Sequence record: SRR22947727_1657
Length of the DNA: 44,219 nucleotides
Strand: one strand, 5' to 3'
In this document: one piece after another, positions 14,973 to 33,213 of the stretch
Numbering within the stretch: the stretch's first letter is position 1
How the letters are laid out: every line of letters begins with the position of its first letter
Program-made: the position numbers and the translations under genes
The notes under the pieces: generated by a model
Seen by the model: the letters and a program-made list of their open reading frames with translations, nothing else
What the model was told of the DNA's origin: nothing
Database searches by the model: none

Positions 14973-15002
14973 AAATACAGTATCTGAGTGTTTATTAAGC
15001 TG

Positions 15003-16592
15003 TTAGGCAAAGTATAAGTATACGCCAATCACCAAAACACAGATGGCTATTCCAACCTCTTTGACGTATTTAAAAGGAAGGATGTCTACTTGTTTGGTAT
15101 AGCTCAATTCGTAAGGAGTTGCCATAGGCTTTAATTGACCAATCACTAACATTATTGCCGTATTGAGCAAGAATAATATGGCCATAACGTCCAAATAATG
15201 TGGGTAAGTTCCCCCATTGTCTGTTACCATTGGCTGAAGTACAAACTGGCTAATGATATACAATAGTGAGCCTGATACAACACCGACTTTAGCTGCTATT
15301 GCAGGAACCCTTTTAGTGGTGTAACCCACGAAAATAATGGTCAGGATGGGAATACTATAAATTCCGTTCACTTCTTGAAGGTAGTCAAATAATGTTCCGG
15401 CATTAGCAATTAATGGTGCTATAAACATAGCAGCAATCGCTAAAACTAGCCCAAAGCGTTTTCCGTTTTTAACCATTTGAAGCTCACTGGCTTCTGGGTT
15501 AATGTGTTGTTTGTAAATGTCTACACCAAATAGGGTAACGGAGCTATTGAGCACAGAGTTAAAGGAGCTTAAAATGGCCCCAAAGAGTACTGCGGCAAAA
15601 AACCCAACCAAGGCTTCAGGCAATACTTCTGCTACGAGCATAGGGTAGGCGGTATCGGCCTTTTCAAGGCCCCCTTCGAATAAATGATAGGCAATGAGTC
15701 CGGGTAATACCACCAATAAAGGACCCAATACTTTAATAAATGCGGCCAACATAAGTCCTTTCTGGCCCTCCGCTAAGTTTTTGGCTGCGAGTGCTCGTTG
15801 AATAATTTGTTGGTTGGTTCCCCAATAAAATAATTGCACGAGCATCATCCCAGTAAAAATAGTGTGGAAAGGTACTGGGTCGGATTCACTACCCATGGAT
15901 TTAAACTTGTCTGGGTTTTCTTGGACCAAAATATTTAGACCGTCTAAAGCATTTCCGTCTCCAATAGCCATGAGGCCAAAAAGAGGAATCATAAGCCCCC
16001 CAATCAAAAGGCCAATGGCATTTATAGAATCAGATACAGCAACGGCTTTTAAACCACCAAATACCGCATATATTCCACCTGTAATCCCTATGCCCCAGAC
16101 ACAAATCCATAAAGCTTCTGTCTCAGTGACACCTAATAGTTCCGGAATGTTGAACATCCCACTAATGGCTACAGACCCTGAATATAAAATTACAGGCAGT
16201 AAAACCACTACATATCCTGTTAGGAAAAGTACAGAGGTAATTGTTTTTGTAGTGACGTCAAAACGGGTCGCTAAAAATTGCGGAACTGTTGTAAGCCCTC
16301 CTTTTAAATATCTGGGCAATAAAAAAATAGCGGTAACTACCATAGCTATAGCGGCGAGGGTTTCCCAGGCCATTACAGATAAACCACTTTCATAGGCAGA
16401 GCCATTGAGCCCTACGATTTGTTCGGTGGACAAATTGGTGAGTAATAGTGAACCCGCTATTACGCCAGCAGTTAAACTTCTTCCGCCAAGAAAATAGCCA
16501 TCTGAAGATTGTTCGTTGGTTTTTCTAGTGGCAAAATAAGCTACAACGGCTACCAAAAGGGTAAACCCAACAAAAGATAAAATTCCTAACAT
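15003..16592 (-). CDS. Sodium:solute symporter (SSS family, sugar/polyol-type, YidK-like)
   Basis: 529 aa with many TM segments. GYFLGGRSL, SLLLTNLSTEQIVGLNG, YAVFGGLKAVAVSD, FYWGTNQQIIQRALAAK, AILSSFNSVLNS. Confidence 0.92.
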   Translation of the reverse strand: MLGILSFVGFTLLVAVVAYFATRKTNEQSSDGYFLGGRSLTAGVIAGSLLLTNLSTEQIVGLNGSAYESGLSVMAWETLAAIAMVVTAIFLLPRYLKGGLTTVPQFLATRFDVTTKTITSVLFLTGYVVVLLPVILYSGSVAISGMFNIPELLGVTETEALWICVWGIGITGGIYAVFGGLKAVAVSDSINAIGLLIGGLMIPLFGLMAIGDGNALDGLNILVQENPDKFKSMGSESDPVPFHTIFTGMMLVQLFYWGTNQQIIQRALAAKNLAEGQKGLMLAAFIKVLGPLLVVLPGLIAYHLFEGGLEKADTAYPMLVAEVLPEALVGFFAAVLFGAILSSFNSVLNSSVTLFGVDIYKQHINPEASELQMVKNGKRFGLVLAIAAMFIAPLIANAGTLFDYLQEVNGIYSIPILTIIFVGYTTKRVPAIAAKVGVVSGSLLYIISQFVLQPMVTDNGGTYPHYLDVMAILFLLNTAIMLVIGQLKPMATPYELSYTKQVDILPFKYVKEVGIAICVLVIGVYLYFA

Positions 16593-16633
16593 ATGTGATA
16601 ATTTGGTTGATGATTATTTTTGTCTAATATACT

Positions 16634-17968
16634 TTATTTTAAGGTCTTTAATTTCTCTACCAAGAATTTACCTACAGCATTTCCTTGTTTTACCCCTTCG
16701 TCTATAGCCCTTCTATAATGAATCCCTCCATAAAGTCTAGACACAGCAGCCTCTTCTGAGGCCGCAATAAATGAGTCATAAGACCTCACGCCTAATCCAT
16801 AGACCTCTTCTGTGGTGTCTGCAAATGAAAAGGTGTCACCATAAATGTCAGTGAGTGCTACGGCAGAAGCCCTTGAGATTACAGAATGTCCAGAGGTATA
16901 TTCTGGAAAAGGAGGTGTTTGAAGCAAAGGTAACCAAGTTTCATCTAAAAACTCGTTAATAATGGTCTCTGGTCTTACAATTAAAGTATTCCATTTGGTA
17001 TTCCAACATGAAATAAAACCGTCGAATAGGGCAATAGATACCCTAGCATAGGCGTTAATGCTTTCATCCATATTACTTTGTGCCTGTTTGGCAGCAATTT
17101 TAGTAATCCCAATCCAGTGCCCTCCTGGAGTGATTTTTTTTGTAGCAAACATGGCGTGTCCTCTGTGGTGAGATACATAAGGGTTACAGTCCCAGAAGCT
17201 GGCAATTTCTGTAGCTTCTGTGCTTCCATCTATTTTTTCACCCAATTCGTACACCTCCATCAATTCTTTGTAAAATGGGCTGTCTTTACTCATATCTACA
17301 GGATAAGGAGGGGCTGGTTCAAACTGATCCGCCGTATCTAAAACTAGCGTTCTTATTTTATTCCAGTGTGGCTCTATTCCTTCCATATAATCAGGAGGGG
17401 TAGGCTTCCAAAAAGCAGTACCTTCTTGTATGGTATATTTTGGAAAGGTTCTGGTTTGTTTGTAAAAATCAGTGTCTGCCCACGCCAAAATATGCGCAGC
17501 AACTAAGTCCCCATATGCCAATGAAGCTTCTTTTACACTTGAAGGAAGTCCGTCTTGTTCTAGGCTAGCGTAAAGGGAATCTCTGTATTCTATTATTTTA
17601 TTTTCTGAAAAAATTAAGGCAGTACCTACTTTTAAAAAGGCGTGAATGGCAGCCAATTCTGCATGAATGTCTGGGTCGTTTATTTCCGGGATGGTTTTAA
17701 AGTCGCTGAGTTGTCCGGCCATATCCTCATATTTTTTAGGATATTGTTTTTGCATGACAGCATATGCAGCAATAGTAGGATACATATATACCCTAGAAGC
17801 TACAGGAGGAGAAAAAATATCGTACACGATTACATCTGACAGTGCTTGCATGCTATTGTGAAATAGCTGAGGGTCTTTTAAGCGCGCTTTATAGGTGTTG
17901 TTTTCTTCACAGCCCAATAGGCTAAAAAAGACAGCACTACATAAAAGAAGTGATTTGATTACTTTCAT
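16634..17968 (-). CDS. Vanadium-dependent haloperoxidase family lipoprotein (PAP2 superfamily)
   Basis: Lipobox LLG-C. All three vanadate/phosphate-binding motifs are present: KWNTLIVRP (Kx6RP), PPFPEYTSGHS and SRLYGGIHY. Also SPPVASR, FWDCNPY and TPGGHW, which are typical of bacterial VHPOs. Confidence 0.88.
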   Translation of the reverse strand: MKVIKSLLLCSAVFFSLLGCEENNTYKARLKDPQLFHNSMQALSDVIVYDIFSPPVASRVYMYPTIAAYAVMQKQYPKKYEDMAGQLSDFKTIPEINDPDIHAELAAIHAFLKVGTALIFSENKIIEYRDSLYASLEQDGLPSSVKEASLAYGDLVAAHILAWADTDFYKQTRTFPKYTIQEGTAFWKPTPPDYMEGIEPHWNKIRTLVLDTADQFEPAPPYPVDMSKDSPFYKELMEVYELGEKIDGSTEATEIASFWDCNPYVSHHRGHAMFATKKITPGGHWIGITKIAAKQAQSNMDESINAYARVSIALFDGFISCWNTKWNTLIVRPETIINEFLDETWLPLLQTPPFPEYTSGHSVISRASAVALTDIYGDTFSFADTTEEVYGLGVRSYDSFIAASEEAAVSRLYGGIHYRRAIDEGVKQGNAVGKFLVEKLKTLK

Positions 17969-17969
17969 T

Positions 17970-20900
17970 TTACTTATGGTTTAAGTCAATAGTTTTAGCG
18001 CTGTCATTGTTGAAAAGCACCAATAATTTGTTGTTGTTTAAAGGCCCAATTGCCCTTGCTTCCATAAAAGGAGGCAGGGGTAAACTGTTGTTTTTTGTAA
18101 ATGTATTTCCGTTAAATTCGGATAGTATTCCGCCAGTATTTGCAGGTGTATTTCCTAATTCTGTTACAAAACCTTTATAATTCCCAACGTAATACAGTTG
18201 TATAGCGCCGGATTGCTTGTCTAAATAAAAGTCTTCAATACTGCTCATTTGGGCTTCAATGGGTAAAGGCACCCCTTGGAAAGTAGTGTTATTTAGGTAC
18301 ACCATAGAGCGCAGTTCTTTGAGGAATTTGGTTTCTATCTCAGCAGGTGGGTTGCTGTAAAGTTGCCCTATTGCTCTCACCTTAGAAAAGGAGGTGTAGG
18401 AAGTAAACTTCTTTTTGAGCATGGGCATTTGCTTGCTGAGCATATCCTTGGAAGCAAATGGGATGTGCTCCCCTTCGAAAGTGTGAAATATGGTAGGATC
18501 TAGTTGTTCATTTTTGTCAAAATCTTCTAGATATATTTCAATAGGGTTTTTTTCAGAAGCCTTAATTTTCATATTTAAACCAGTGTTTCCTGCAATTATA
18601 TCTGGTTTATTATCCCCATTTAAGTCCTCTAATAAAACAGTATTCCACAAGCCTTGTGTATTAGCCAAGCCCAATGCCTTTGTCTGATTCTCAAAATTTC
18701 TACCATCTTTGTTAATTAAAACAGTAATGGGCATCCAGTCTCCAACCAGCACCAAATCCAATAAACCGTCTTGGTTAAGATCTCCCCAAGCACTGTCAGT
18801 GATCATTCCATAGTCTTTACGGGCCAGAAGCTCAAAATTACCTTTCTGGGTGTTTCTTAAAATAACGCTAGAGGGTGAAATACCATAGGCTCCAGGCACA
18901 GACCTAAATCCTAAAAACAAGTCTGAAAAGCCGTCATTGTCAAAATCTGCCACAGCGATGCTTCCTCCATTGGCCATAGGTAAATTGGCCTTGGATCTCG
19001 TGAAATTTCCTTTTCCGTCGTTTATGTAAAGTCTGTCTACCAATTGAATATCTCCTTCAGGACTGTCATTGCCGCCACTCATTACATAGAGGTCTAAATC
19101 TCCGTCATTGTCAAAATCTATAGCGGCAGCGTCTACGTCTTCATAAAGGGCGTCTTCCGTAATGACTTTTTTAATCTCTGCAGTAAAATCACCTGATTTA
19201 TTTTGAGTATAAAAAGCACTTTCTTGGTATTTAGCACCTCCAATATATAGGTCTTTTAAACCATCTCCATTAAAATCTTCAAATACATAACAAGGCCCTT
19301 CTGTAGAGAGTTTTTCCAACATTAAAGGCTCTCTTTCGTAGTCGTAATATTTATTTTCTAGGTGGGTAAATGGAAAGTCTACAACCGCCCCCGTATTGTT
19401 TTTGTCTGTTTTGGTTGGCGCTATTCTTGAGTTTATAAACGCACTTATTTCTTGATAGGTATTGATAGAAACATTTTTGATGGTTTGTTTTCCACCAATA
19501 GGATAAATTATAGCGATGGAATCAACAGCGGTGTTTTTCCCAATTCCAAAGTGAATATTTTGGCTGGAAGCCGATGCGTAACCCCTAGTAGCACTCAGCT
19601 CTTTATACCATATTTGTTGCCCCGCAAAGAGGGTCACTTTTGCACCACTAGTGTTTGGTATATCCAGTGTTGGAACCAATTGTAGCCCAACAAAATTGTG
19701 TGTGATAGGGTCCTGAGTGTTTTCTAAGATCTCTAAAGGGCTATTGATATTGTTCACCACTAGGTCTATATCTCCATCTAAATCCAAATCTGCATAGGCA
19801 GCACCATTGGAGTAGTTGTTTTTCAGTCCAGCTGCTTCTGTATATTTTTTGAATTTTAGCCCGCCTTCATTATACAGCAGTACGTTGGCAATTTCTAATT
19901 GGGGCATTTCATCAATTAGTTTTTTTTCTAGAAGGTCTTGTTGGTCTTGGTTGTATTGGCTAAAATTTACATTGCTTAGGTAGTTAATATAATCTAAATC
20001 ATTAGGTCTTCTGTATATACCGTTGCTAATAAAAATATCTGAAAGCCCGTCGTTGTCAAAGTCTTCAATAAGCGCAGACCAACTCCAGTCTGTGGCATAA
20101 GTTTCTGTGAGTAGGGCTATTTCTTGAAAAGCCCCTTCTCCGTTGTTTAATTGAAAATTATTTCTGGAATACTGTGGCTGAAATCCAAAACCCTCTTTAA
20201 TTTGAGCCACTTTATCTGAATCTTCACCACCAGATTTTAAGAGTATAGCGGCTTGATCGGGCATCATATCTAATGTAAATACATCAATTAATGCGTCGTT
20301 ATTAAGGTCTGCAGCGTCTAATCCCATGGTAAATCTACTACTATGACTGGTCACTTCCGCACTGGCTTCTCTAAAGGTTTTGTCTCCGTTATTGAGATAG
20401 ATATAATCGTTTTCGTGAAAATCATTTCCAACGTAAATATCAATGAATCCATCTTTATTTAAATCTGCGGTAGCCAATCCCAATCCGTATCCCAATGGGC
20501 TGTTGTATATCCCTGCAGCCTGTGTGACATTCACAAAATTTAAAACACCCGTTTCTAGTGTATTTTCAAATAATAAATCTCCTGAAAGCGCATCTTTCTC
20601 TACCCTTTTCTCCGTCTTTCCATAACTTCTAGGTGTGTGTACGGTATGGTTGAGTAAGTAGAGGTCCAAGTCTCCGTCGTTGTCATAATCAAAGAAACTC
20701 GCTTGGGTACCAAATCCTGAAAAGTCAATATGTACTTCGTTTGAAATTTCTTTAAATTTAAAATCACCTTGGTTTAGGAACAGTTTGTTGTGTCCTTTAA
20801 GTGTTTTATAATTTCCTACAACAGACACATAAACATCTAATAGGCCGTCGTTATTGACATCTGCCAGGGTAACCCCATTTGACCAACTGTTTTGTGTATT

Positions 20901-21245
20901 TATGTCTGCAGTAGCTGTTTGGTCTTTAAATTTAAGCCCTCCCAAGTTTTCATAGACCCTGTCTTGAACCTGATTTCCAGTGACGAACAGGTCTTCTAAT
21001 CCATCATTATTTAAATCTCCAATGGCCACTCCTGCACCGTTGTAGAAATAGAGGTATTCTATAATATTTAAGTCTGCACTGGGCGTTAAAGTATTTTCAA
21101 AATCTACCCCACTTTGTTCTGCTGTAATGGAATTAAAATATACTGGCGAAACTTCTTTTGGAGATTCGCAACTTTGAAGCACAGCAAATAGGGCTGTGAG
21201 CAAAAAAGTGTTTTTGGTGATCTGTAATAATAAGTGTTTTTTCAT
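17970..21245 (-). CDS. FG-GAP/VCBS-repeat + ASPIC/UnbV (CRTAC1-like) lipoprotein, paralog 3
   Basis: Lipobox LQS-C. Seven DxxxDGxxD-type Ca-binding loops, then ASPIC/UnbV-like 'RGYASASSQNIHFGIG...IIYP', then six more loops (seventh degenerate). Confidence 0.9.
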   Translation of the reverse strand: MKKHLLLQITKNTFLLTALFAVLQSCESPKEVSPVYFNSITAEQSGVDFENTLTPSADLNIIEYLYFYNGAGVAIGDLNNDGLEDLFVTGNQVQDRVYENLGGLKFKDQTATADINTQNSWSNGVTLADVNNDGLLDVYVSVVGNYKTLKGHNKLFLNQGDFKFKEISNEVHIDFSGFGTQASFFDYDNDGDLDLYLLNHTVHTPRSYGKTEKRVEKDALSGDLLFENTLETGVLNFVNVTQAAGIYNSPLGYGLGLATADLNKDGFIDIYVGNDFHENDYIYLNNGDKTFREASAEVTSHSSRFTMGLDAADLNNDALIDVFTLDMMPDQAAILLKSGGEDSDKVAQIKEGFGFQPQYSRNNFQLNNGEGAFQEIALLTETYATDWSWSALIEDFDNDGLSDIFISNGIYRRPNDLDYINYLSNVNFSQYNQDQQDLLEKKLIDEMPQLEIANVLLYNEGGLKFKKYTEAAGLKNNYSNGAAYADLDLDGDIDLVVNNINSPLEILENTQDPITHNFVGLQLVPTLDIPNTSGAKVTLFAGQQIWYKELSATRGYASASSQNIHFGIGKNTAVDSIAIIYPIGGKQTIKNVSINTYQEISAFINSRIAPTKTDKNNTGAVVDFPFTHLENKYYDYEREPLMLEKLSTEGPCYVFEDFNGDGLKDLYIGGAKYQESAFYTQNKSGDFTAEIKKVITEDALYEDVDAAAIDFDNDGDLDLYVMSGGNDSPEGDIQLVDRLYINDGKGNFTRSKANLPMANGGSIAVADFDNDGFSDLFLGFRSVPGAYGISPSSVILRNTQKGNFELLARKDYGMITDSAWGDLNQDGLLDLVLVGDWMPITVLINKDGRNFENQTKALGLANTQGLWNTVLLEDLNGDNKPDIIAGNTGLNMKIKASEKNPIEIYLEDFDKNEQLDPTIFHTFEGEHIPFASKDMLSKQMPMLKKKFTSYTSFSKVRAIGQLYSNPPAEIETKFLKELRSMVYLNNTTFQGVPLPIEAQMSSIEDFYLDKQSGAIQLYYVGNYKGFVTELGNTPANTGGILSEFNGNTFTKNNSLPLPPFMEARAIGPLNNNKLLVLFNNDSAKTIDLNHK

Positions 21246-21246
21246 T

Positions 21247-24200
21247 TTAGAATTTATATCTCAAAATAGCATCACTGTTTCTAACAAATAATAGGGTGTT
21301 GTTAGTCTTTTGAATTGACCTCACTTCTCCAGTTACTTTTAACCCCTTGTTTCCTGGAGTGACCTTAAATATGGGTGTTCCTATGGTGTCATTTCCAGTA
21401 TTCTCTAAAAATGTTCCAAAGCTAGCGTCGTACCTGCCCACTTCTGGTTTTACCCTAAATAAGTTTCCCGCAAGGACTATGTCTATGTCACCATCTAAAT
21501 CAAAATCACCAGTTTCAATGGCAAATATTGGTGACATTTGAACTTGCTTTGGAAGTGGGATAGATGTAAACCCTCCATTTCCATCATTGATATAAATAGA
21601 AGTTTTTAATTCAACTGCCGTTGCTTTTGTGCTTAGGTTTAAAGCTTCTTCAGAAAAAATGGTATTTAAATCGGCATTTTTAAAGCTGTTGTAATCTGGA
21701 AACTTCTTTTTAAGTCCCTTCATTTGATCAATTAGATTGTGCCTCAAATTGTAAGGGTACACTTTACCGTCCGTTGCGGTGAAACCCATGACAGGGTCTA
21801 AGGCCCCATTTTGGTCAAAATCCTGAACAAAAAGACAAATTGGTTGTTCTTTACTTGCTTTAAATCTGGAGTTTTCTCCATGATTTCCTACGATTAAATC
21901 AGGAAAACCATCTTGATTTACATCGGCGATTTTTAAGGCACTCCACCAGCCTTTTTCCTGCTGTAATTCGCTGGCTTTTTTTGTGAAAGATCCTTGATCA
22001 TTTAAGAATATCTCTATACCCATAAACTCTCCTATTACCACTAGATCTAGGTCACCATCTGTATCTATGTCATTAAAATTCGCGTCTGTAATCATACCAA
22101 TTTCATTCAATCCTGGTGCAAGTATGGCTGTTTGATCTGCGAATATTCCAGTACCATCATTGCGTAATAAATGGCCATTTACTGGAACGCCATATGCGGC
22201 GGTAATAGACCTTTCGCCTACAAATAAGTCTGTATCTCCATCTTGATCAAAATCTCCTGTACTCACAACAGAAGTATTGAAGTAGCTACTTGCAGTGGGT
22301 AACACATTTGGAGAAGGACTAAATATTCCATCACCATTATTGAGGTATAATTGATCTGCCAATTCAGAGGAAAACTTTGAAAATTCTATGCCCCCATTCC
22401 CCAAATAAATATCTAAATCTCCGTCGCCGTCTGCATCTAATAAAGCTACAGCAGTTACTTCAGCAGCCAAATCCTCTGAAAAGTTAAATTCTTTTGAATG
22501 CTTGTACTGACCTTGTTGGTTCCCAAGCAATACCTCTGATCTAAATCCTTTACTCCCCCCAATAATGACATCCTGAATTCCGTCCTTATTAAGGTCTCCA
22601 ATAGCAGATTTAGGCCCTGGGGTACTCATCATATGATGCAACAGACGGTCTCTGTTAAAATCAATGAAATTATTTTCCTGGTGAACATAAGCGTCTACCG
22701 CATTAATTTCTGAGAAAATAATTGCGTCTGGAGCTTCAGACAAATTAGTATTGACCACTCCATCTAACATCTCCAACTGAAGCAGTTGATTGGTTTGCAC
22801 CTCATCTTTAATAGTGACCATACCATTTGGCCAAGTGACTTTTACTTGAACTGAATTGTCAGAGGGTAAACCAATATGTGGTCTTTGATCCATGCTAGAT
22901 TGAAAGCCTCTAATAGGCTGTTGTGCAACGCTATATGTATTGTCACCTTGAGACACCTCAATTAATGTTCCTACTGCAAATGTGTTCTTTCCAGTTCCTT
23001 TTAGATTAAACTGAATAAAGTTATTGTTGGTTTTGTTCTCACTGGTGTTTTTATAGACAAACAGCGGCATATTTACATTGTTAACGACCAAATCTAAATC
23101 GCCGTCATTGTCTAAATCTCCATAAGCGGCCCCGTTAGAGAACCCTTTAGTCTCCAACCCTAGAGCAGCATCTCTTTTGAATTTTAAATCACCTAAATTT
23201 TTATAAGCCTGATTTTCAATAGGATTAGAAGGTATAATATCTATTAGCCTAGCGTAGTCTACTTGATTGTTAGTCACAATGGAGTTAATGACCTCGTCAC
23301 TGGAAACGTATTGAAGGTAGTCTTGGTCTGTAAGGTCCCTGTAAATTCCGTTGGCAATAAAAAGGTCTTTTAGGCCGTCGTTGTCCATGTCAAAAAACAA
23401 TGCACCCCAACTCCAATCCGAGGCTTCTACACCTGCCAATCTGCCAATCTCACTAAATGTATTGTCTCCGTTATTTAGTTGGAGGGTGTTTCTAGTGTAT
23501 TGGTGGTAATAGCCATTTTTAACGTTGTAAGTGTATTTGTCCCAATTTTCAAAAGTGGTCACTGATTTAAGTCTTTCATAATTGGAAGGAAGCATTTCAG
23601 TAACAAAAATATCTGCTTTTTGATCGTTGTTTATATCTGCCATATCTGCCCCCATAGATGCGCCAGAAATAGAGTTTATTGAAGCGGTAAGGGTCTCTTT
23701 AAAGCTACCATCCCTATTATTGATGTATAAGTAATCTCTTTCAAAAAAATCATTAGACACGTAAATATCTTCCCAACCATCGTTGTTTACATCACCTACA
23801 GTAACGCCCAATCCAAAGCCAATTACTGAACCGTAAATACCCGCTTTCTCACTCACGTCTACAAAAATTCCGTCCTGATTTTCGAGCAGTTTGTCGCCAC
23901 CCAATACATCTCTTTTGGGTCTTTCATTTCTTCTGAGGTCAAAGCTTCCAATCGCTTGATAGGAGTTGTTTAACAGGTATACATCTAGATCTCCGTCTTT
24001 GTCGTAGTCAAAAAAGGAAGCATGGGTAGAAAAGCCTTTGTCTGCTAAGCCATAAGCGGCTGCCTCTTCTTTAAAAGTGTTGTCTTTTTGATTGATGAAT
24101 AATTCATTTTGTTTGCTGTCTCCAGAAACATCACCTGAATTACACACATAAATATCTAAATAGCCGTCTGCGTTAATGTCCACCATAGTCACTCCGGTTG

Positions 24201-24555: not shown

Positions 24556-24559
24556 GGGT

Positions 24560-25156
24560 TTATTTTAATGCAGGAAACTTATGTCTGAGGTCTTCTAAAG
24601 TAACCTTTACGTCTTTATCTCCTTGAGCATGAATGATTATCTGTCTGTTTCCGTCAATTTTAACATAGGTAGGCGTGTTTAGTTGTTTATTTTCTAACAA
24701 GAAAAAATCATTTCCAGGATACCATTTTTTGAGGGTATCCATAGCTACAAATAGCAATTTGTCCGATTGAAGTTTTTCTGTCCATGGAGACCATCCGTCA
24801 TAGGTAAATTCCATATCTAGCCCAACCATTTGTTTTTCCTCATTAAAAATTCCATAAAAAAGGTGGGTCATGGAAGTTTCAGAAGTCCCTTTTAGTTCGT
24901 AGGCTACAAACTGGTTTTTTGGTCCCTGTTTAATGAGTCCTTTTTTGTTTAGTTCCCAACACTTGGCAAAAAAGTCTTTTTTACTGTCTCCGAAATACAA
25001 ATTAAATTGGAGGCTGTCTATTCTCTTACCAGAGGCCATTTCTTTTTTTACGATGCGATCGTATTTAGACTGACACGAGCCTAGGCTGATTAAAAGCATT
25101 CCTAAGAGGGCAAAGGTGAAAATACTATTGAATGTTTTTGATTTTAATGCTGTCAT
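24560..25156 (-). CDS. Hypothetical lipoprotein (start uncertain; as called it overlaps the upstream gene by 32 bp)
   Basis: 198-aa ORF with hydrophobic segment and lipobox LGS-C, tightly packed in the operon (4-bp gap to the next gene). No domain recognised. Confidence 0.75.
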   Translation of the reverse strand: MTALKSKTFNSIFTFALLGMLLISLGSCQSKYDRIVKKEMASGKRIDSLQFNLYFGDSKKDFFAKCWELNKKGLIKQGPKNQFVAYELKGTSETSMTHLFYGIFNEEKQMVGLDMEFTYDGWSPWTEKLQSDKLLFVAMDTLKKWYPGNDFFLLENKQLNTPTYVKIDGNRQIIIHAQGDKDVKVTLEDLRHKFPALK

Positions 25157-28100
25157 TGTTTATACCTAAAATTATTGAATATTGGTCTTTATCTTTAAAG
25201 CTTATAATTGATCTAATGTCTCCTTTTATACCCAAAGATTCCGGTTTTTCAAAGATACCGTTCTTTTGTTGTTTTAATATCCAACCATTTGAAGATTCTA
25301 ATGGTCCAAACTGGGGTTTTATTTTAGACTGATTTCCACCTAGTATAATATCTATTTTTCCGTTGTTGTCTAAATCTTCTAAAAGAATACTACCCACATT
25401 CGAGTACTGCACTTCAGGAGCCAGTGCTTTTCTTGTGAAAGTGCTGTCACTGCCCCAGTAAATTGCGCTGCTCATTACATGAAGCTCTTTTATTAAAGCT
25501 GTTTGGTAAACGTCCGCTCCAAACAGATCGGTCATATTTGCATTGGCGTAGTCTTTGTAATAAAGGTATTTTTTCTTTAATGAGGGGATTTGCTTAAAAA
25601 GTTCATCTCGGTCTAAGATGGGATAGTCTGCCCCGTTTTCGTGATAGGTCATGATTTGTTCTGCAGTACCATTTTCATCAAAATCTTTCACAAACATTTT
25701 CATTCCTTTTTTGTAAAAGCTGTTCTCTCCAATATTTCCAATCACAAGATCTTGGTGTCCGTCTGCATTTAAGTCTGCTATCTCTAGGCATGCCCACAAA
25801 CCAGTATCTTTTAATAGTCCATAGCTTTCTTTGGCCTCATTAAATGCACCTTGAACGTTTATAAACACTTTTGGAGACATCCATTCTCCCACTACAATAA
25901 TGTCTTCTAAGCCATCCTTGTTCAAGTCAAAGTGTTTTGCCTCTGTTAGCATACCAATATTTGAAAATACCTCAGGTGCTTCCTCGGTGAAGTTTCCTGC
26001 ACCATCATTTCTTAAAATAAATCCCTGTCCATCTTTGCCATAGGTTTCCACTTGGTATCTTTCTCCTACAAATAAGTCTGTATCTCCATCATTATCAAAG
26101 TCAGCAGCTGTAAGCGCGCCTGTTGAAAATGGTCTTGAAAATAGTGTGTTGGATTGTTTGTTAAAAACACCTTTTCCGTTGTTTACATATATCCTATCAT
26201 GGAGGTTAAATGAAAATTTAGAAAACGCTTTTCCACCACTTCCCACATAGAGGTCTAAGTCTCCATCATTGTCAATATCAATGAAAATGGCCTTAGTGTC
26301 TTCACTCATGGCATCTTTCTCAAATTCAATTTTAGAACTTAATTGATACTCATCTCCATTGCTGAGCCACAATTCTGAGGCTTGGTCTTTGGCTCCACCA
26401 AAAAAGAAGTCTGGCAGCTGATCTCCATTGAGATCTGCTTTTATAATGACAGGCCCTTCATTGCTATGCATTTGCGGTAATAAACGCTCTTGGTTAAAAT
26501 CTACAAAACCGTTTTCTAAATGTTTAAATCCAAAAGGAACCTTGGTGTCCAAAGAATGGGTGTTTTGTATCTTTGATGAAACAAGCGGAATGGATTTTTT
26601 TACGGCCTTATAATCAACATGGATGTGTTGGTTTACAGGCAGTTCGGTTAAAACGGATCGTTGCTGGTCGGGCCAAAATATTTCAATACTGTCAATGCGA
26701 GCGTTTTGCCCTAAGCCAAAGTGAAGCCTATTGCTAATAGCGCTTTGAAAGCCCCTGGAAGGGAATTGTTCGAGCATACTCTTTTGCCCTTCTTGGTAAA
26801 CGATAACTTTGCTCCCTATACCAAAGGTGTTTTTTTCAAAGCCTTTTAAGCTAATTTGCACATAGTTGTTTTCTGTACTGTTGTTTTTGTAAACAAAAGC
26901 AGGCGCATTAATGTTGTTCACCACAAGGTCTAAATCTCCGTCATTATCTAAATCCCCGTAGGCACTTCCATTGCTAAAGCTGGGGGCGTCAAAACCCCAT
27001 AGGTGTCTTATGTTTTCAAATTGAAAATTTCCTTTGTTTTTGTATGCTCCATTAGGCACAGCAGCAGAAGGCATCACATCTATAAGTTTACTCAATACGT
27101 CATTGTCCTCTTCTATGAGTTGGCGGACCTTTTCATCATTGGCCATAAAGGTTAAGTAATCCCTGTCTAGCAGGTCTTTATGAATACCATTACTAATGTA
27201 TAGGTCTTTTAAGCCGTCGTTGTCCATGTCAAAGAACAGGGCAGCCCAACTCCATTCCGAACCGTCCACTCCAGCAATTCTCGAAATTTCAGCAAATGTG
27301 TTTGTCCCCATATTTCTTTGGAGTACATTCCTTGGAAATTGATTGCCGTAGCCTTTGCTTTTTGCCAATTGGTGTTTGTCCCAACTTTCATAAGAGGCTT
27401 TTAGTTTTTTTCTTGACAACTGCTCTGGTAACATTTCTGTGACCATCAGATCTGTTTGAAGGTCATTGTCAATGTCTGCGGCATCGGCTCCCATGGAGCC
27501 CATAGAGGTAGCGTTAAAGTAGCTATCTCCCATTTCATCAAAACCGCCATTTTGATTGTTGATGTACAGGTAATCTTTTTCAAAAAAGTCATTTGAGATA
27601 AAAAGGTCTGGCCATAAATCGTTGTTGAAATCTGATAGGGTAATGCCCAGTCCAAAGCCAATTTTACTGGAATATATACCAGCCTCTTCAGATACATTTA
27701 CAAAATGCCCATTCCTGTTTTCTAAGAGCTTGTTCCCTTCCATGTCTGGAATATTTCTTTGATTTTCTATTAAATCATAGGCACCTACAGAGCGCATAGA
27801 ATTGTTGAGTAGGTAACAGTCAAGGTCTCCGTCTAGGTCATAGTCAAAAAAAGCAGCCTGTACAGATAGTCCAGTAATATCCAAGCCGTATTCTGCCGAA
27901 GCTTCTTTAAATGTATTGTTTTTTTGATTGATAAATAGTTCATTATGCCTGTTTTCTCCGCCTGGCATGCCTGATTTACACACATAGAGGTCTAGCCAAC
28001 CATCTTGATTTATGTCTACAAATGTAGCTCCAGAAGACCATATATTTTTACAAGCGACTCCTGCGGTTTCTGCAATTTCCTCAAATTTAAAATCCCCACG

Positions 28101-28379
28101 GTTTAAATACAATGCATTGTTCACCAAGTTTCCTGTGAAGTAAATATCTATTAATCCGTCGTTATTAATATCTCCTAAAGCCACTCCAGCACCGTTGTAG
28201 AAGTTCCTATATGTATAAGGATTAAATGCCTCGGTATAACTTAATTCATTGTTAAACGCCACACCAGTTGTACTGGGTTTGATGAGTTCAAATCGTGAAC
28301 TAGTATCTTTACAGCTCAAAATAAAGAGTGTGAACAGACCTAGCAAAACAACCTTAGCTATATGGCTTGTTTTTGGCAT
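25125..28379 (-). CDS. FG-GAP/VCBS-repeat + ASPIC/UnbV (CRTAC1-like) lipoprotein, paralog 1
   Basis: Lipobox ILS-C. 7+7 DxxxDGxxD-type loops flank 'RGFQSAISNRLHFGLG...IFWPD'. Confidence 0.9.
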   Translation of the reverse strand: MPKTSHIAKVVLLGLFTLFILSCKDTSSRFELIKPSTTGVAFNNELSYTEAFNPYTYRNFYNGAGVALGDINNDGLIDIYFTGNLVNNALYLNRGDFKFEEIAETAGVACKNIWSSGATFVDINQDGWLDLYVCKSGMPGGENRHNELFINQKNNTFKEASAEYGLDITGLSVQAAFFDYDLDGDLDCYLLNNSMRSVGAYDLIENQRNIPDMEGNKLLENRNGHFVNVSEEAGIYSSKIGFGLGITLSDFNNDLWPDLFISNDFFEKDYLYINNQNGGFDEMGDSYFNATSMGSMGADAADIDNDLQTDLMVTEMLPEQLSRKKLKASYESWDKHQLAKSKGYGNQFPRNVLQRNMGTNTFAEISRIAGVDGSEWSWAALFFDMDNDGLKDLYISNGIHKDLLDRDYLTFMANDEKVRQLIEEDNDVLSKLIDVMPSAAVPNGAYKNKGNFQFENIRHLWGFDAPSFSNGSAYGDLDNDGDLDLVVNNINAPAFVYKNNSTENNYVQISLKGFEKNTFGIGSKVIVYQEGQKSMLEQFPSRGFQSAISNRLHFGLGQNARIDSIEIFWPDQQRSVLTELPVNQHIHVDYKAVKKSIPLVSSKIQNTHSLDTKVPFGFKHLENGFVDFNQERLLPQMHSNEGPVIIKADLNGDQLPDFFFGGAKDQASELWLSNGDEYQLSSKIEFEKDAMSEDTKAIFIDIDNDGDLDLYVGSGGKAFSKFSFNLHDRIYVNNGKGVFNKQSNTLFSRPFSTGALTAADFDNDGDTDLFVGERYQVETYGKDGQGFILRNDGAGNFTEEAPEVFSNIGMLTEAKHFDLNKDGLEDIIVVGEWMSPKVFINVQGAFNEAKESYGLLKDTGLWACLEIADLNADGHQDLVIGNIGENSFYKKGMKMFVKDFDENGTAEQIMTYHENGADYPILDRDELFKQIPSLKKKYLYYKDYANANMTDLFGADVYQTALIKELHVMSSAIYWGSDSTFTRKALAPEVQYSNVGSILLEDLDNNGKIDIILGGNQSKIKPQFGPLESSNGWILKQQKNGIFEKPESLGIKGDIRSIISFKDKDQYSIILGINNDSIKIKNIQ

Positions 28380-28499
28380 GAATTGTATTGTTAATTAAGT
28401 GGTTAAGGGAGGTTGGTTTGAGGGGCAATATACCTAAAATTCTTCTTTATTTCAAGCGGCTAGCCTCCTTAATTTCAGGACTCTTTTTAAAAAATGTTC

Positions 28500-28531
28500 A
28501 AAAAAAAAGCGGCCCTAATGGGCCGCCTTTT
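28500..28531 (-). terminator. Rho-independent terminator after susD
   Basis: Stem GCGGCCC-TAAT-GGGCCGC (28509-28526). A9 run on + gives a U-tract on the minus strand, 24 nt after the susD stop. Confidence 0.85.
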
Positions 28532-28550
28532 ATAAGATATAAACGAAGGA

Positions 28551-30158
28551 TTAGTATCCTTGGTTTTGTGTCAATGCTCCGTTAGAGTTTTGAATAGCAT
28601 CTGCAGGGATAGGCATTACAATTCTGTAAGCATCAGAATTTGTTTTTTCCCACCATGTAGAATTCCATTTTCCAAAACGGATTAAGTCAGATCTTCTAGA
28701 ACTTTCCATAAACATTTCACGTCCTCTTTCTGCTAAGAAAGAATCTGCAGTGATAGATCCAAGTGCAGAAACACCTGCTCTTGCTCTTACTGTGTTTACG
28801 TCTGCTGCAGCCATAGACCAGTCTCCTGCTACTCTAGCTTTTGCTTCTGCTCTCATTAAATAAACATCTCCTAATCTCACGATTGGGTAATCATTATCTA
28901 AGTCAGGTCTCGCAAAGTTTTTAAAGGCAAATTTACCTAATCTTGCACCATCTGTTCTTCCAGCATTTGGCTCTAATTGATTGATAGAAGTAGAATAAGT
29001 TATTGCTGGATCCTGAGTGTCAGAGGCTAAATCTACCACTACACTTCCTCCGAAGTCCGTTTGAGCACCTACAATAAAGTTTGCTTCTTTACGAGCATCT
29101 CCATCTTCATAAGAGTTGTAAAACTCCTCTAAAGCAGAGTATCCATTCCAAGGTTGGTCTTGGAATAAGTAGGTAAATTGAGACGCATAGTGTAAAGACA
29201 TTTGGTGGAAGTTCATTCCTCCTGCAGTTGCCTCGTCGTACTCAACAGACCAGATAATTTCTGGATTGTCATAATTTGCAGGTGAGAATACTGCTGCATA
29301 GCCTGTTAAGCTTTCTTTGTCAGAAGCTACTGCAGGTCTCTTAGATGGATTTGGCACAGATACAGAGCTGTCAGATAATCTATAAGATGAATTAGAGATA
29401 ATATAATCAGCAGCATCATGAGCTTCTTGCCATCTGGCAGTACCTGTGTAAACCTCAGCGTTTAAATATAACTTAGCCAAGATCCCTAAAGCACCAAATT
29501 GGTTAATTCTGTACTTAACGTCTCCTGTAGTTAAAGCAGAACCACTCAAGTCCATTCCAGCAGTTACTGAAGACACTCCTAAGGCAGAAAGAATTTCTCC
29601 TTCAATACGAGCAAAACCAGCAGATCTTGACAATTGTGCAGAAGTACCATTCTCATCTACATAACGAATACGTCCATAAAGGTCTAATAATCTCCAGTGC
29701 AAGTAAGCACGCAAAACTTTAGCTTGCGCAGTTAAGTTAGCGTCTAAACCTCCATTTGCAATAGAGTTGTTCACTTGTGCAATAGCGTTATAACCACCAT
29801 TCCAAGTATCTTTGATAGGTCCGTTAGCAGCTGTTTGTGTGTGTCTGTGAATATCTAACCAGATTCCACCGTCATACCAGTCACCTCCTTTTTGGGTTAC
29901 GGCCATTTCATCTGAAGAAACAGATTGTACAGAGAAGTACCCTCCGTGTCCTGCAGTTCCAGTTCCTCTCAAGGCTCCGAAAGCAGAAGTTAGTCCGTCA
30001 GATACAGTAAAAGCACTACCGCTGAAAGACTGGTTTGTTACCCCGTCTACAGTAAAGTCAGTAGTTAAATCCCCTACCAAATCTTCCTCTAAATCAGTAC
30101 AAGAGTAAGTTAAACTTACGAGTCCTATACCTAAAAGTATTTTGTTAAAAGTTTTCAT
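28551..30158 (-). CDS. susD: RagB/SusD-family nutrient-binding outer-membrane lipoprotein
   Basis: Lipobox TYS-C. 'AKVLRAYLHWRLLDLYG', 'LAKLYLNAEVY', 'RLGDVYLMRAEA', 'ERGREMFMESSRRSDLIRFG'. Directly downstream of SusC. Confidence 0.95.
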   Translation of the reverse strand: MKTFNKILLGIGLVSLTYSCTDLEEDLVGDLTTDFTVDGVTNQSFSGSAFTVSDGLTSAFGALRGTGTAGHGGYFSVQSVSSDEMAVTQKGGDWYDGGIWLDIHRHTQTAANGPIKDTWNGGYNAIAQVNNSIANGGLDANLTAQAKVLRAYLHWRLLDLYGRIRYVDENGTSAQLSRSAGFARIEGEILSALGVSSVTAGMDLSGSALTTGDVKYRINQFGALGILAKLYLNAEVYTGTARWQEAHDAADYIISNSSYRLSDSSVSVPNPSKRPAVASDKESLTGYAAVFSPANYDNPEIIWSVEYDEATAGGMNFHQMSLHYASQFTYLFQDQPWNGYSALEEFYNSYEDGDARKEANFIVGAQTDFGGSVVVDLASDTQDPAITYSTSINQLEPNAGRTDGARLGKFAFKNFARPDLDNDYPIVRLGDVYLMRAEAKARVAGDWSMAAADVNTVRARAGVSALGSITADSFLAERGREMFMESSRRSDLIRFGKWNSTWWEKTNSDAYRIVMPIPADAIQNSNGALTQNQGY

Positions 30159-30171
30159 AATTTTTTTTTTT

Positions 30172-33102
30172 TTAAAAGTTAATGTTAAGTCCTACAGTAA
30201 ATGTACGAGCAGAATAGAAGTTATTTCTTCTGTCCATACCTGGAGCCAACACATTTCCATTGTCTGATAAAGACGGTTCTGGATCAGATCCAGTATACTT
30301 TGTCAAAACAAAAGCATTTTGAACGTTTAAAGATAAAGTAGCTCTGTCTATAAGACTGCTATTTAAGTTTAAGTTTCTTGCTACGGTTAAGTTGTCTAAT
30401 TTAAAGAAATCTGCTTTCTCAACATATAAAGAAGAGAATTGTGCGTTGGTAATTTCTGGGTTAGCTAACTCAGTATTGATGTAGTTATACGATTTTTGTG
30501 AACCAACTCTTGGTTCGTAAAATACACGGAATGTATTTACTAAGCTGTGTCCAAATGCTCCTCTAAAGAATGCATTAATAGACCACTCACCAAAAGTAAT
30601 TTGGTTGGTCCATCCCAATTCAAAATCAGGAGTACCTCTTCCTACTACAGCGAAATCTGCGTCGTCGTTTAACATGTTAGCTTGGTTGGTGTTAATAACA
30701 CCATCTCCGTTAACATCTACGAAATTTTGAGAACCATTAGTCACAGTTCCATCCCATACTGGCGCATAGATCTGTCCAATTTCTTCTCCTACTTTAACAC
30801 GGATGGCATAAGTATCATTTTGACCAGGTGCACCTAAGTTAGCAAAACGCTCTTGTTCAGAAACATATTCATCTAAGATAGTTTGGTTTGTAGACCACAC
30901 AATTCCAGTGTTATAGTTAACACCATCTCCTTTTACTAAGTCGTAGTTAACGGCCAATTCAACTCCTTTAGAAGTCACTTGTCCAGCGTTTTCAAATCTT
31001 CTGTCAAAACCATAAACAGTAGCATCTACTTGTCTGTCTAAGATGAAATCACTAGAAGTTTGCTCGTAGATGTCTAAAGAAGCAGACAATCTGTCTGTGT
31101 TAAAATCTAAACCGAAGTTAATCTCAGATTTTTCTTCCCATTTTAGGTCTGGGTTTGCAGCCCTTACTAGGAAAGTATTTCCTCCAGATGTACCACCACC
31201 GGCCCATCCAAATCCTCTAACTTCTTGAGATAATCCATTTCCTGCAGGTACGTTACCAGTTACCCCGTAAGAAAGTCTAGCTTTTAATTGGTTTACACCT
31301 TCAAGATTTAAGTATTTATTTAAATCAGTTCCTAGTCCAATTGCAGGGAAAGTACCGTATTTGTTACCTTCACCAAATTTAGTAGAACCTTCTCTTCTCA
31401 CAGAAGCATTTACAAATAAATTGTCTCCAATCGTTAAGTTTGCTCTTAAAAAGTATGCTTCAATTTCATTGTCTGGAGCCATATCAGAGTTAGCACCTAC
31501 AAAACCTTGGTTTAATAAATCCTGACCTAACTCAATAGCGTTAATATAGTCAAAATCACCTGTTGGGAAATCTCCAACAGTTACTGAGTGAGAGTTAAAG
31601 TTTTGCTTTTGGTAAGAATACCCTCCAGTTAATACTAAGTTAGAGTTACCGAAAGACTTATTCCAAGTAGCATAAGCTTCGTATAATCTGAAAGTATACT
31701 CATCGTTGTACAATGTAGCAGAACCTTTTCTAGAAGGAGATGCAGCACCACCATTCCAAAGTGAAGTTCCTCTGTAGTACAATCTGTTTCCGTATTTAGA
31801 CAATTGGTTCGCAGCATTGAAATGAACATCAATATCATCCGTTAAGCTGTAGGTGAAGTTTGCAGAGTAGTTGTACTCTACTTTTTTACCATCGTTAATG
31901 TTTTGGTTGGCAATAGAAACAGGGTTGAATGAATCAAACAAACCTAAAGTTTCAAAATAACCACCAAATTGCTCACCGTTAAATGCATAAGGTGCATTTT
32001 CAGCTAAAATAGGTGCAGTTGGGTTATACAAAGTAGCATAACGCAATGCTTCACTGAATCCATTTTGTTGGTTTCTGTCTGTAAAAGAAGAAGAGAACTC
32101 AATTTTTAATTTGTCATTTAAAGTTCTTGTAGAGAAGTTTAAACGCGCATTCATTTGAGTAAACCCGTTGTTTACTAAGATGCCTTCTACATCTCTGTAG
32201 TTGGCAGAAACACGGTAGCTAGTGGAACCATTACCACCTGACATAGAAACGTTGTGGATTGTAGTTGCAGCAGTTCTTGTAACCTCATCCAACCAGCTGG
32301 TTGATGCACCTAAATCACGACCGCCAGCAGCTCTAAACTCATCTGCAGACATAACGTCTATTGTGTTTAATCTTTCAGCAGAAGAATACTGCACATTGTA
32401 AGAAATCTTCGTTTCTCCAGCAACACCAGACTTAGTCGTAACAAGAATAACCCCAGATGAACCACGAGATCCGTAGATTGCAGCTGCAGAAGCATCCTTT
32501 AAAACACTAATGTTAGCAATATCGTTTGGATCTACGTTGGATAAAGACGCCCCAATAACTCCGTCTATAACTACTAATGGAGAAGCATTTGCTCCAACTG
32601 TAGATAGACCTCTCAAACGAATCTGAGCACCAGCGTTAGGGTTTCCTCCTTTGTTGTAGATCTGAAGACCAGCAACTTTACCTTGTAGTAATTGAGAAGG
32701 GTCGTTTACCTGTCCTTGGTTAAACTCTTCTTCTCCTACAGATACAACTGCTGAAGTAATCTCCTTTTCTTTTTGACCTCCATAACCTGTAACGATTACT
32801 TCATCCAATTCATTGTTGGCTACCAATACTACATTAATCGTAGTTTGATTACCTACAGCAACTTCTTGTGCTGTGTACCCTACATAAGAGAACACTAAGA
32901 TGTCGCCGCTTCCAGCTTGAATGGTAAAGTTACCATCAAAATCTGCTGTTGTTCCATTGGCAGTACCTTTAACGACTACAGATGCTCCTAATAAAGGACC
33001 ATTGTCGTCAGAAACATTACCAGATACTGTCTGCGCTTTTGCCAAGCCAAAGCACATAATGGCTCCAACCAACAAAAAGCTTTTGAGTAGCATAATTTTC
33101 AT
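30172..33102 (-). CDS. susC: SusC/RagA-family TonB-linked outer-membrane transporter
   Basis: CarboxypepD_reg-like N-terminus. LLQGKVAGLQI, PLVVIDG, 'ISVLKDASAAAIYGSRGSSGVILVTTK' signature, NPDLKWE, C-terminal 'RTFTVGLNINF'. Confidence 0.96.
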   Translation of the reverse strand: MKIMLLKSFLLVGAIMCFGLAKAQTVSGNVSDDNGPLLGASVVVKGTANGTTADFDGNFTIQAGSGDILVFSYVGYTAQEVAVGNQTTINVVLVANNELDEVIVTGYGGQKEKEITSAVVSVGEEEFNQGQVNDPSQLLQGKVAGLQIYNKGGNPNAGAQIRLRGLSTVGANASPLVVIDGVIGASLSNVDPNDIANISVLKDASAAAIYGSRGSSGVILVTTKSGVAGETKISYNVQYSSAERLNTIDVMSADEFRAAGGRDLGASTSWLDEVTRTAATTIHNVSMSGGNGSTSYRVSANYRDVEGILVNNGFTQMNARLNFSTRTLNDKLKIEFSSSFTDRNQQNGFSEALRYATLYNPTAPILAENAPYAFNGEQFGGYFETLGLFDSFNPVSIANQNINDGKKVEYNYSANFTYSLTDDIDVHFNAANQLSKYGNRLYYRGTSLWNGGAASPSRKGSATLYNDEYTFRLYEAYATWNKSFGNSNLVLTGGYSYQKQNFNSHSVTVGDFPTGDFDYINAIELGQDLLNQGFVGANSDMAPDNEIEAYFLRANLTIGDNLFVNASVRREGSTKFGEGNKYGTFPAIGLGTDLNKYLNLEGVNQLKARLSYGVTGNVPAGNGLSQEVRGFGWAGGGTSGGNTFLVRAANPDLKWEEKSEINFGLDFNTDRLSASLDIYEQTSSDFILDRQVDATVYGFDRRFENAGQVTSKGVELAVNYDLVKGDGVNYNTGIVWSTNQTILDEYVSEQERFANLGAPGQNDTYAIRVKVGEEIGQIYAPVWDGTVTNGSQNFVDVNGDGVINTNQANMLNDDADFAVVGRGTPDFELGWTNQITFGEWSINAFFRGAFGHSLVNTFRVFYEPRVGSQKSYNYINTELANPEITNAQFSSLYVEKADFFKLDNLTVARNLNLNSSLIDRATLSLNVQNAFVLTKYTGSDPEPSLSDNGNVLAPGMDRRNNFYSARTFTVGLNINF

Positions 33103-33197
33103 AAATAGTTAATTTAAAGTTTAGTTAATTTTAGTTTAAGCGTTAAACATATGTAAATTTTCTGTTAAACAGGAAACAAAAACAGGGTAAAAAAGTT

Positions 33198-33213
33198 ACG
33201 AAAACGGTTTCGT
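33198..33213. promoter_or_regulatory. LacI-family operator between susC and the LacI gene
   Basis: 16-bp palindrome ACGAAAAC|GGTTTCGT with 7 of 8 pairs complementary and the central AAACG pattern typical of LacI/GalR operators. Confidence 0.8.

Follow-up and report, generated by a model that had tools for sequence, protein, structure and literature searches.

Several described loci resemble the gene block studied here. In the catalogue of Kappelmann et al. (2019; PMC6298971), Supplementary Figure S2J depicts a polysaccharide utilization locus (PUL) type assigned to trehalose (PUL103/116); the assignment is a prediction from GH37 and GH13 glycoside hydrolase (GH) genes, and the ASPIC and PAP2 genes of these loci are given no role. 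Its Table S3 includes related gene sets (PUL62 of Dokdonia, assigned to α-glucan, PUL122, PUL183, PUL345 and PUL272), an ASPIC-PAP2-SusC-SusD set of Zobellia amurskyensis (PUL363) and PUL30 of Arenibacter palladensis, with the order HI0933, GDPD, GH13, GH65, bPGM, LacI, SusC, SusD and SSS. North Sea bloom metaproteomes contained SusC/D proteins that were ascribed to this trehalose type (PMC6298971). We analyzed a 44,219-nucleotide stretch of DNA from sequence record SRR22947727_1657, called the window below, in which eight minus-strand genes combine a SusC/SusD pair with three ASPIC/UnbV lipoproteins, a small lipoprotein, a vanadium haloperoxidase (VHPO) and a Na+ symporter of the SSS family.

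The window locus is one more instance of the published architecture: the order lacI, SusC, SusD, ASPIC, hypothetical, ASPIC, ASPIC, PAP2 is identical to that of PUL103/116 as depicted in the catalogue. With moderate confidence, we regard it as a LacI-controlled PUL-type locus of a marine flavobacterium dedicated to small α-glucosides or α-glucan fragments of the maltose/trehalose class, a reading in which we infer the substrate, the co-regulation and the localization. The substrate class is suggested by a divergent operon with a GH65 phosphorylase and a β-phosphoglucomutase (bPGM), by the recurrence of GH37, GH13, GH65, GH97 and SusE/F genes as partners of the module, by a sugar-type inner-membrane transporter and by the published catalogue. 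The initial annotation, made from the letters of the window, had called the block an uncharacterized candidate system; its novelty was overstated, because the exact gene order had been published as a predicted trehalose PUL. The locus type is thus catalogued, but not functionally characterized: the literature searched contained no functional study of the module, in line with the remark in that annotation that no established function was known for the arrangement, and no paper giving the ASPIC or PAP2 genes of such loci a function. Our additions are the GH65/bPGM/SSS variant, a terminator behind susD, an operator-like palindrome, a comparison of the symporter with SGLT and Na/I symporters, and counts of gene neighborhoods. 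The block contains the following features.

30172-33102, minus strand: susC, SusC/RagA-type TonB-dependent transporter, 976 aa (Pfam, NCBIfam).
28551-30158, minus strand: susD, SusD-family lipoprotein, 535 aa (Pfam SusD_RagB).
28498-28530, minus strand: hairpin of an intrinsic terminator or attenuator in the susD/ASPIC-1 gap; its GC stem, at 28509-28526, precedes U9.
25125-28379, minus strand: ASPIC-1, lipoprotein, 1084 aa (Pfam FG-GAP_3 and UnbV_ASPIC).
24560-25156, minus strand: small lipoprotein, the orphan of the initial annotation, 198 aa, without a named family.
21247-24555, minus strand: ASPIC-2, lipoprotein, 1102 aa, CRTAC1-like double propeller (Pfam, AlphaFold2).
17970-21245, minus strand: ASPIC-3, lipoprotein paralogue, 1091 aa (Pfam).
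16634-17968, minus strand: VHPO, vanadium haloperoxidase-family lipoprotein, 444 aa (phmmer against Zg-VIPO1).
15003-16592, minus strand: SSS, SGLT-type Na+/sugar symporter, 529 aa (NCBIfam).
14972-14947, minus strand: intrinsic terminator closing the lipoprotein-SSS unit; its 11-bp stem has 8 GC pairs, its loop measures 4 nt, and there is a T-run.

Open reading frames (ORFs), translations and family matches confirmed the eight co-oriented genes reported by the initial annotation, and its intergenic distances agreed with ours (13, 171, −32, 4, 1, 1 and 41 bp from susC to SSS, the negative value being the 32-bp overlap of the small lipoprotein gene with the ASPIC-1 gene). The terminator it placed after the block was found as well, and so were its six lipoboxes, in which, read by eye, a Cys ends the N-terminal hydrophobic stretch of SusD, the three ASPIC proteins, the small lipoprotein and VHPO. 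Its frame, which ran to 33213, holds the right genes but extends too far, as the susC ATG lies at 33102 and 33103-33213 is untranslated upstream DNA.

Beyond this frame, a divergent plus-strand operon starts from the other side of the 366-bp intergenic region upstream of susC. This region and the operon hold the following features.

33198-33213: 16-bp palindrome ACGAAACCGTTTTCGT with a CG center, lying some 100 bp before susC and a candidate operator of the LacI family.
33469-34485, plus strand: LacI-family regulator (Pfam LacI and Peripla_BP), under every NCBIfam equivalog cut-off.
34556-35206, plus strand: bPGM (NCBIfam equivalog TIGR01990, 244.8 bits, cut-off 189.4).
35214-37526, plus strand: GH65 phosphorylase, maltose-phosphorylase-like (Pfam GH65 N, middle and C domains).
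37523-38302, plus strand: GDPD, glycerophosphodiester phosphodiesterase (Pfam E = 1.4e-39).
37523-39549, plus strand: GDPD together with an abutting HI0933-type flavoprotein gene.

The GH65 protein scored 1142 bits with NF010380 (cut-off 838), and among solved relatives it matched the Lactobacillus maltose phosphorylase 1H54 at 747 bits compared with 391 bits for kojibiose phosphorylase. A three-domain GH65 protein with an adjacent bPGM gene is what a maltose phosphorylase pathway would be expected to show. The GDPD gene overlaps the GH65 gene by 4 bp. The term "hydrolase-free", which had been applied to the locus, holds inside the eight genes, none of which matched a GH, polysaccharide lyase (PL), sulfatase or SusE/F family, but not for the divergent operon alongside, where GH65 lies. 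The locus appeared free of carbohydrate-active enzymes (CAZymes) only within the original frame, because the LacI/bPGM/GH65/GDPD operon diverges from the intergenic region of susC. Nor does the term suit the relatives, in which GH37, GH13 (including SusG-like), GH65, GH97 and SusE/F genes occur within or beside the module. Both hallmarks of a PUL are present in the window: an adjacent susC/susD pair with a 13-bp gap and a co-localized CAZyme, GH65, 2.1 kb from the susC start.

The palindrome looks as a LacI-family operator would and is a candidate for one. It is the single site in the intergenic region, and 0.22 chance matches would be expected over the whole window. The 1.41 Mb of fetched loci yielded just two further copies at up to two mismatches, one before susC of L081 and one before susC of L083; the susC genes of L053 and L082 are preceded by sites with three mismatches. 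L084 and L085, which differ in the regulator or have a greater distance, showed no such site. No second copy was found upstream of the bPGM gene, and therefore LacI-bPGM-GH65 may be a single unit read from the shared intergenic region.

Several published loci can be compared with the window. In PUL103/116 as depicted, GH13, an MFS permease and GH37 follow PAP2, whereas the window has an SGLT-type SSS at this place and carries its catabolic genes (bPGM, GH65 and GDPD) beyond the regulator. The basis of the trehalose assignment, a GH37 and a GH13 gene, was not found among the 30 window ORFs scanned, which include GH65 and bPGM instead. The divergent operon has the gene content usual at the rear of flavobacterial α-glucan loci. 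Two such PULs, listed as PUL30 and, in Cellulophaga, PUL38, share with the window the HI0933, GDPD, GH65, bPGM and LacI genes divergent from SusC-SusD, and PUL30 also ends in an SSS gene. As listed, however, these two carry GH13 and lack the ASPIC/lipoprotein/PAP2 insert, whereas in the window the insert is present and GH13 is missing. The SusCDEFG system of B. thetaiotaomicron resembles the window in having a SusC/SusD pair followed by surface lipoproteins, but the window is without SusE/F or SusG and its regulator is LacI-type, whereas the regulator of the B. thetaiotaomicron starch system is SusR.

SusC reached 607 bits with TIGR04056 (NCBIfam cut-off 368) and also matched the SusC signature; it has a signal peptide and the Pfam CarboxypepD_reg, Plug and β-barrel domains, without an STN or anti-sigma domain. 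SusD matched Pfam SusD_RagB at E = 1.5e-23 and shows an acidic stretch behind its lipobox Cys (C-TDLEEDL). Its best NCBIfam model was the starch SusD model (117 bits, under its cut-off), and among solved structures B. thetaiotaomicron SusD (3CK7) ranked second, with the likeness confined to the C-terminal 115 residues. The SSS protein scored 774 bits with NF007790 (PRK10484; cut-off 401), and its nearest solved structure was Vibrio vSGLT (232 bits), compared with 66 bits for the Na/I symporter (NIS). Judged by these scores, the symporter is SGLT-like and not iodide-symporter-like, which makes the halide or vanadate import considered in the initial annotation unlikely.

The VHPO protein aligned over residues 7-443 with the iodoperoxidase Zg-VIPO1 of Zobellia galactanivorans (4CIT/4USZ; phmmer E = 1.6e-141, 475 bits). 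The motifs K-x6-RP, SGH and R-x5-H, represented by K325, R332, P333, S359, G360, H361, R411 and H417, were invariant in 53 orthologues and aligned to the same residues in 4CIT. By this full-length match and the agreement of all PAP2/VHPO motif residues, the window protein is a clear orthologue of Zg-VIPO1, and the resemblance to the Zobellia iodoperoxidase neighborhood, to which the initial annotation had pointed, was a fair lead. Zg-VIPO1 is a known iodoperoxidase and has been used as the positive control for this activity (PMC10427571). PAP2 was the sole Pfam match of the window protein, at 27.3 bits, and the sequence cannot discriminate a peroxidase from a phosphatase, because PAP2 acid phosphatases share these motif residues.

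All three large lipoproteins combine propeller repeats with a UnbV_ASPIC domain and belong to the ASPIC/UnbV (CRTAC1) family. ASPIC-1 consists of an FG-GAP/VCBS propeller, the UnbV_ASPIC domain and a second propeller, with Pfam matches to FG-GAP_3 (E = 1.2e-72, eight stretches) and UnbV_ASPIC (E = 4.3e-21); the corresponding values for ASPIC-3 were 3.1e-69 and 3e-16. The AlphaFold2 model of ASPIC-2, built from 40 sequences, was confident and compact (pLDDT 89.2, pTM 0.89), and its top Foldseek match was murine CRTAC1 (9ETN; E = 1.3e-25, target TM 0.69, 20% identity over 603 columns), the other rows being generic multi-propeller proteins with TM of at most 0.28. Among the top 50 Foldseek entries, no GH or PL fold exceeded TM 0.28 against the full-length model, which was searched whole rather than as single domains, and a sequence search of the PDB with the ASPIC proteins returned only CRTAC1 and integrin alpha-6, with no CAZyme. 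The FG-GAP propeller and ASPIC domain are common to CRTAC1 and the window proteins, but the latter are lipoproteins with a second propeller and about twice the length, and they lie within sugar-uptake operons. Of the 13 conserved positions specific to ASPIC-1, 11 fall within residues 144-413.

The small lipoprotein matched no Pfam or NCBIfam family. Its relatives formed 143 clusters, every one unnamed or labeled "hypothetical", and the ESM Atlas returned only unnamed Bacteroidota clusters. The AlphaFold2 model (pLDDT 90.4) is an α+β domain, for which a wide VIA search gave a best Z of 6.5, under the Z of 7-8 typical of models without a clear match. The DUF4309 fold (4YGT), the best PDB entry in Foldseek, was rejected at E = 8.7e-4 and TM 0.33/0.41, and no fold was assigned.

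To establish how far the module is conserved, as the initial annotation had supposed, VHPO was searched against one genome per species, which gave at least 597 confirmed relatives (597 of 600 candidate stretches). The counts that follow concern the best 80 of these at least 597 VHPO loci, at 55-94% identity, whose records are labeled Flavobacteriaceae, Cyclobacteriaceae, Flammeovirgaceae, Saprospiraceae, Lewinellaceae and others. For 78 loci with at least 1.5 kb upstream of VHPO (two more were too short), an ASPIC gene lay directly upstream in 49 and 0.8-3.5 kb upstream with a gene between in 10; in 19 there was none. The small lipoprotein gene was present upstream in 36 of the 80 loci, always behind the first ASPIC gene, and many of the loci scored without it are cut by contig ends. 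As the 10-kb flanks stop inside ASPIC-1, five source genomes were searched with the window SusD, and in all five an orthologue (49-89% identity) lay immediately upstream of ASPIC-1. These linkages bear out the conserved module, and we conclude that the core susC-susD-ASPIC-lipoprotein-ASPIC-ASPIC-VHPO recurs across Bacteroidota. All five extended loci (L081-L085) contain susC-susD; two have a divergent LacI gene (L081 and L085), and two have bPGM-GH65-GDPD beside susC (L081 and L082, both in the order GDPD-GH65-bPGM-LacI, L082 also with GH13). L084 carries an ECF sigma/FecR pair and an N-terminally extended SusC.

A second terminator, on which the initial annotation was silent, lies 22 nt past the susD stop and consists of a GC-rich stem, a 4-nt loop and U9. 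It folds at −21.6 kcal/mol (z = −3.8), and none of 200 shuffled sequences was as stable. A GC-rich hairpin with a T-run follows susD in all five orthologous loci L081-L085, with differing sequences, which makes six of six counting the window. Because this terminator or attenuator is conserved, the eight genes are probably two transcription units, susCD and ASPIC-1 through SSS, and it probably sets a high ratio of susCD to accessory-gene transcripts.

Public sequence runs offered a weak hint in the same direction. Nineteen runs contained half or more of the words sampled from 24000-33400; six of these are metatranscriptomic and come from four studies. In four metatranscriptomic libraries, contigs of at least 95% identity reach 29-30 of the 30 bins into which 14800-34700 was divided. 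In library X14, depth was 80-160 in the susC-susD bins and 0-23 in those from ASPIC-1 to SSS, and in X19 it was 160-666 and 5-44, respectively; in both, the susC-susD bins greatly exceed the flanks, and the step coincides with the susD terminator. Depth is given per contig, so it cannot rank genes, and DNA may be present in RNA libraries; adapter sequence occurs at the contig ends near 28570-28577, which were not taken as transcript ends. These depths hint weakly at plentiful susCD RNA in situ and at an effective susD terminator.

The genes that travel with the module were then counted at the first position downstream of VHPO in the 70 loci that have one. An MFS transporter occupied it in 15 loci, a GH37 trehalase in 13 and an SSS gene in 8 (4 co-oriented, 4 opposite); this first position held an FGGY kinase in 4, a Cys/Met pyridoxal-phosphate enzyme on the opposite strand in 4, malic enzyme in 3, a sulfatase in 2 and an ECF sigma factor in 2; GH65, GH97, GH13 and GH100-like genes occurred once each, other single families in 8 loci, and genes of no family in 7. 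Behind the trehalases stood an SSS gene, or an FGGY kinase with a glycerol-3-phosphate-dehydrogenase-like gene (28 of 60 second genes and 7 other ORFs scanned). In L033 and L052, ASPIC and VHPO have a SusG-like GH13 gene between them. VHPO is neighbored by a SusE/F gene in L024, L011 and L070, in the last two of which this gene and a GH13 gene with a type IX secretion (T9SS) tail flank VHPO-trehalase pairs. Enzymes for small α-glucosides are thus the commonest recognizable partners, though not universal.

On the preferred reading of the locus as an α-glucoside PUL, SusC and SusD would move the sugar across the outer membrane, and the SGLT-type SSS would take over at the inner membrane, importing this sugar or the glucose it gives rise to. 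The GH65 phosphorylase would then form β-glucose-1-phosphate in the cytoplasm, which β-phosphoglucomutase would convert to glucose-6-phosphate. The SusE/F/G proteins of classical starch loci would be replaced by three CRTAC1-like, putatively calcium-binding double-propeller lipoproteins, the small lipoprotein and the Zg-VIPO1 orthologue, a set that would be transcribed downstream of the post-susD terminator or attenuator. The propellers would serve as surface binding or scaffold proteins, not as enzymes, and the VIPO orthologue would be a working vanadium iodoperoxidase, using up H2O2 together with iodide in the envelope of cells that are feeding on exudates of algae or cyanobacteria.

Several observations weigh against this reading. 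No PF00128 (GH13) or PF01204 (GH37) match was found among the 30 ORFs of the window that were scanned; the nearest genome examined, G001 (64% complete), has two PF00128 matches, both away from the locus. An α-glucoside marker lay within 10 kb of VHPO in only 23 of the 80 loci (BLASTP to exemplars) and in 14 of the 45 that measure 18 kb or more, a sample in which the three-ASPIC loci end before passing susC. Elsewhere the partners vary: GH32, a fructokinase and a sugar transporter flank susC in L083, sulfatases and a GH78 fusion follow VHPO in L013 and L014, and a GMC oxidoreductase with 3-keto-disaccharide hydrolases lies near the module of L039; other loci have sugar transporters only. Single ASPIC genes are also listed in PULs predicted for xylan, β-glucosides and galactans (entries of Table S3, PMC6298971), so ASPIC is not α-glucoside-specific, and the 19 of 78 loci with VHPO and no ASPIC mean that the two are separable. 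In libraries X16 and X18, depth was flat across the region, neighboring genes included, as DNA carry-over would be. Lastly, the reading offers no reason for a disaccharide to need SusC/D and three 1100-aa lipoproteins.

We also weighed whether the PAP2-fold lipoprotein acts as a phosphatase in vivo, in which case the module would handle phosphorylated or glycerophospho-linked glycosides, with GDPD and the glycerol genes finishing the work. Vanadate-free (apo-) haloperoxidases can show phosphatase activity, PAP2 is the sole Pfam family of VHPO, and glycerol-related genes are frequent in the neighborhood: the GDPD gene overlaps that of GH65, other GDPD-like genes stand behind VHPO-SSS in L010, L024 and L060, an FGGY kinase was found in 15 of the 80 loci and a glycerol-3-phosphate-dehydrogenase-like DAO gene in 8 of them, and PUL47 is listed as PAP2::glycerol kinase::SSS::GH36 (Table S3, PMC6298971). 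Against this, VHPO is far nearer to Zg-VIPO1 (475 bits) than to anything named phosphatase, and the GDPD-GH65 pairing is also listed in α-glucan PULs without PAP2 (PUL30 and PUL38), so we hold this explanation to be unlikely. Doubtful to a slightly greater degree is the idea that the double propellers are a new calcium-dependent lyase or hydrolase that cleaves glycans in place of SusG, in which case the eight genes themselves would include enzymes of this kind. Some propeller folds are polysaccharide lyases, the three ASPIC paralogues sit where PULs usually have their surface enzymes, and more than 100 ASPIC columns are invariant across families, among them the non-calcium residues W381-S382-W383 and E272/D274/Y275/Y277. 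Yet CRTAC1, the only convincing Foldseek match, is not known to be an enzyme; GH and PL entries stayed within the TM of 0.28 noted above for the full-length model, and the SusG-like GH13 genes of L033 and L052 stand beside two ASPIC genes, which argues against a simple substitution.

A further alternative, to which we give an equally small chance as to the propeller enzyme, holds that ASPIC and VIPO form an oxidative-stress or iodine module of the envelope that shares a promoter region with a SusC/D pair importing something other than an α-glucoside. The loci with VHPO and no ASPIC and the many unrelated genes found beside VHPO would suit it, as would the terminator that parts susCD from the module in six of six loci. 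Iodine uptake by the iodine-accumulating Arenibacter C-21 requires glucose, O2 and Ca2+; the model proposed for it involves a glucose oxidase as well as a haloperoxidase, and five or more Zg-VIPO homologues are encoded in the genome of this strain (PMC5064120). However, the order susD-ASPIC...VHPO-sugar transporter is kept across Bacteroidota families, VHPO is immediately followed by a GH37 trehalase in 13 of 70 loci, also in the absence of ASPIC, and the SSS is SGLT-like rather than iodide-symporter-like. Chance adjacency of genes without a functional link is very improbable: only the variable flanks speak for it, compared with gene gaps of −32 to 41 bp and the same order in Flavobacteriaceae, Cyclobacteriaceae, Flammeovirgaceae, Saprospiraceae and Lewinellaceae records.

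Returning to the α-glucoside PUL, we speculate, with low confidence, that the propellers, the small lipoprotein and the iodoperoxidase might form one extracytoplasmic machine, in which hypoiodous acid (HOI) chemistry or Ca-dependent capture would free or condition α-glucoside material from algal surfaces before SusC/D. If true, this would be a PUL front end made of non-CAZymes, and bacterial vanadium iodoperoxidases would gain a physiological role in nutrient acquisition. With at least 597 VHPO relatives, the PUL type is widespread in marine Bacteroidota, and the locus provides a compact, genetically tractable setting for the role of bacterial CRTAC1-like propellers and for a coupling of halide/peroxide chemistry to sugar scavenging.

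Some further genes were observed in and around these loci. FGGY (glycerol-kinase-like) and glycerol-3-phosphate-dehydrogenase-like genes recur by VHPO-trehalase pairs in L011, L015, L027, L054 and L006, which are Cytophagia-type records, and hint at glycosyl-glycerol substrates. A GyrI-like protein is encoded between ASPIC and VHPO in L036, L060 and L067, a pairing also present in PUL122 and PUL345 as catalogued by Kappelmann et al. Four neighboring regions of the window are given here.

14246-14893, minus strand: ORF of 215 aa just past the closing terminator, with an N-terminus like that of a lipoprotein; it matched neither a Pfam nor an NCBIfam family, and its position is kept in L001, L002, L008, L009 and L047.
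12024-14195, plus strand: penicillin-amidase-family protein (Pfam E = 2.1e-117), weakly similar to the PvdQ acylase and possibly an acyl-homoserine-lactone or β-lactam acylase; it adjoins the locus in L001, L008, L009 and L047.
39542-40015, minus strand: TspO gene.
40136-42203, plus strand: mevalonate-pathway genes (diphosphomevalonate-decarboxylase-like and GHMP kinase), followed by a UbiA prenyltransferase gene.

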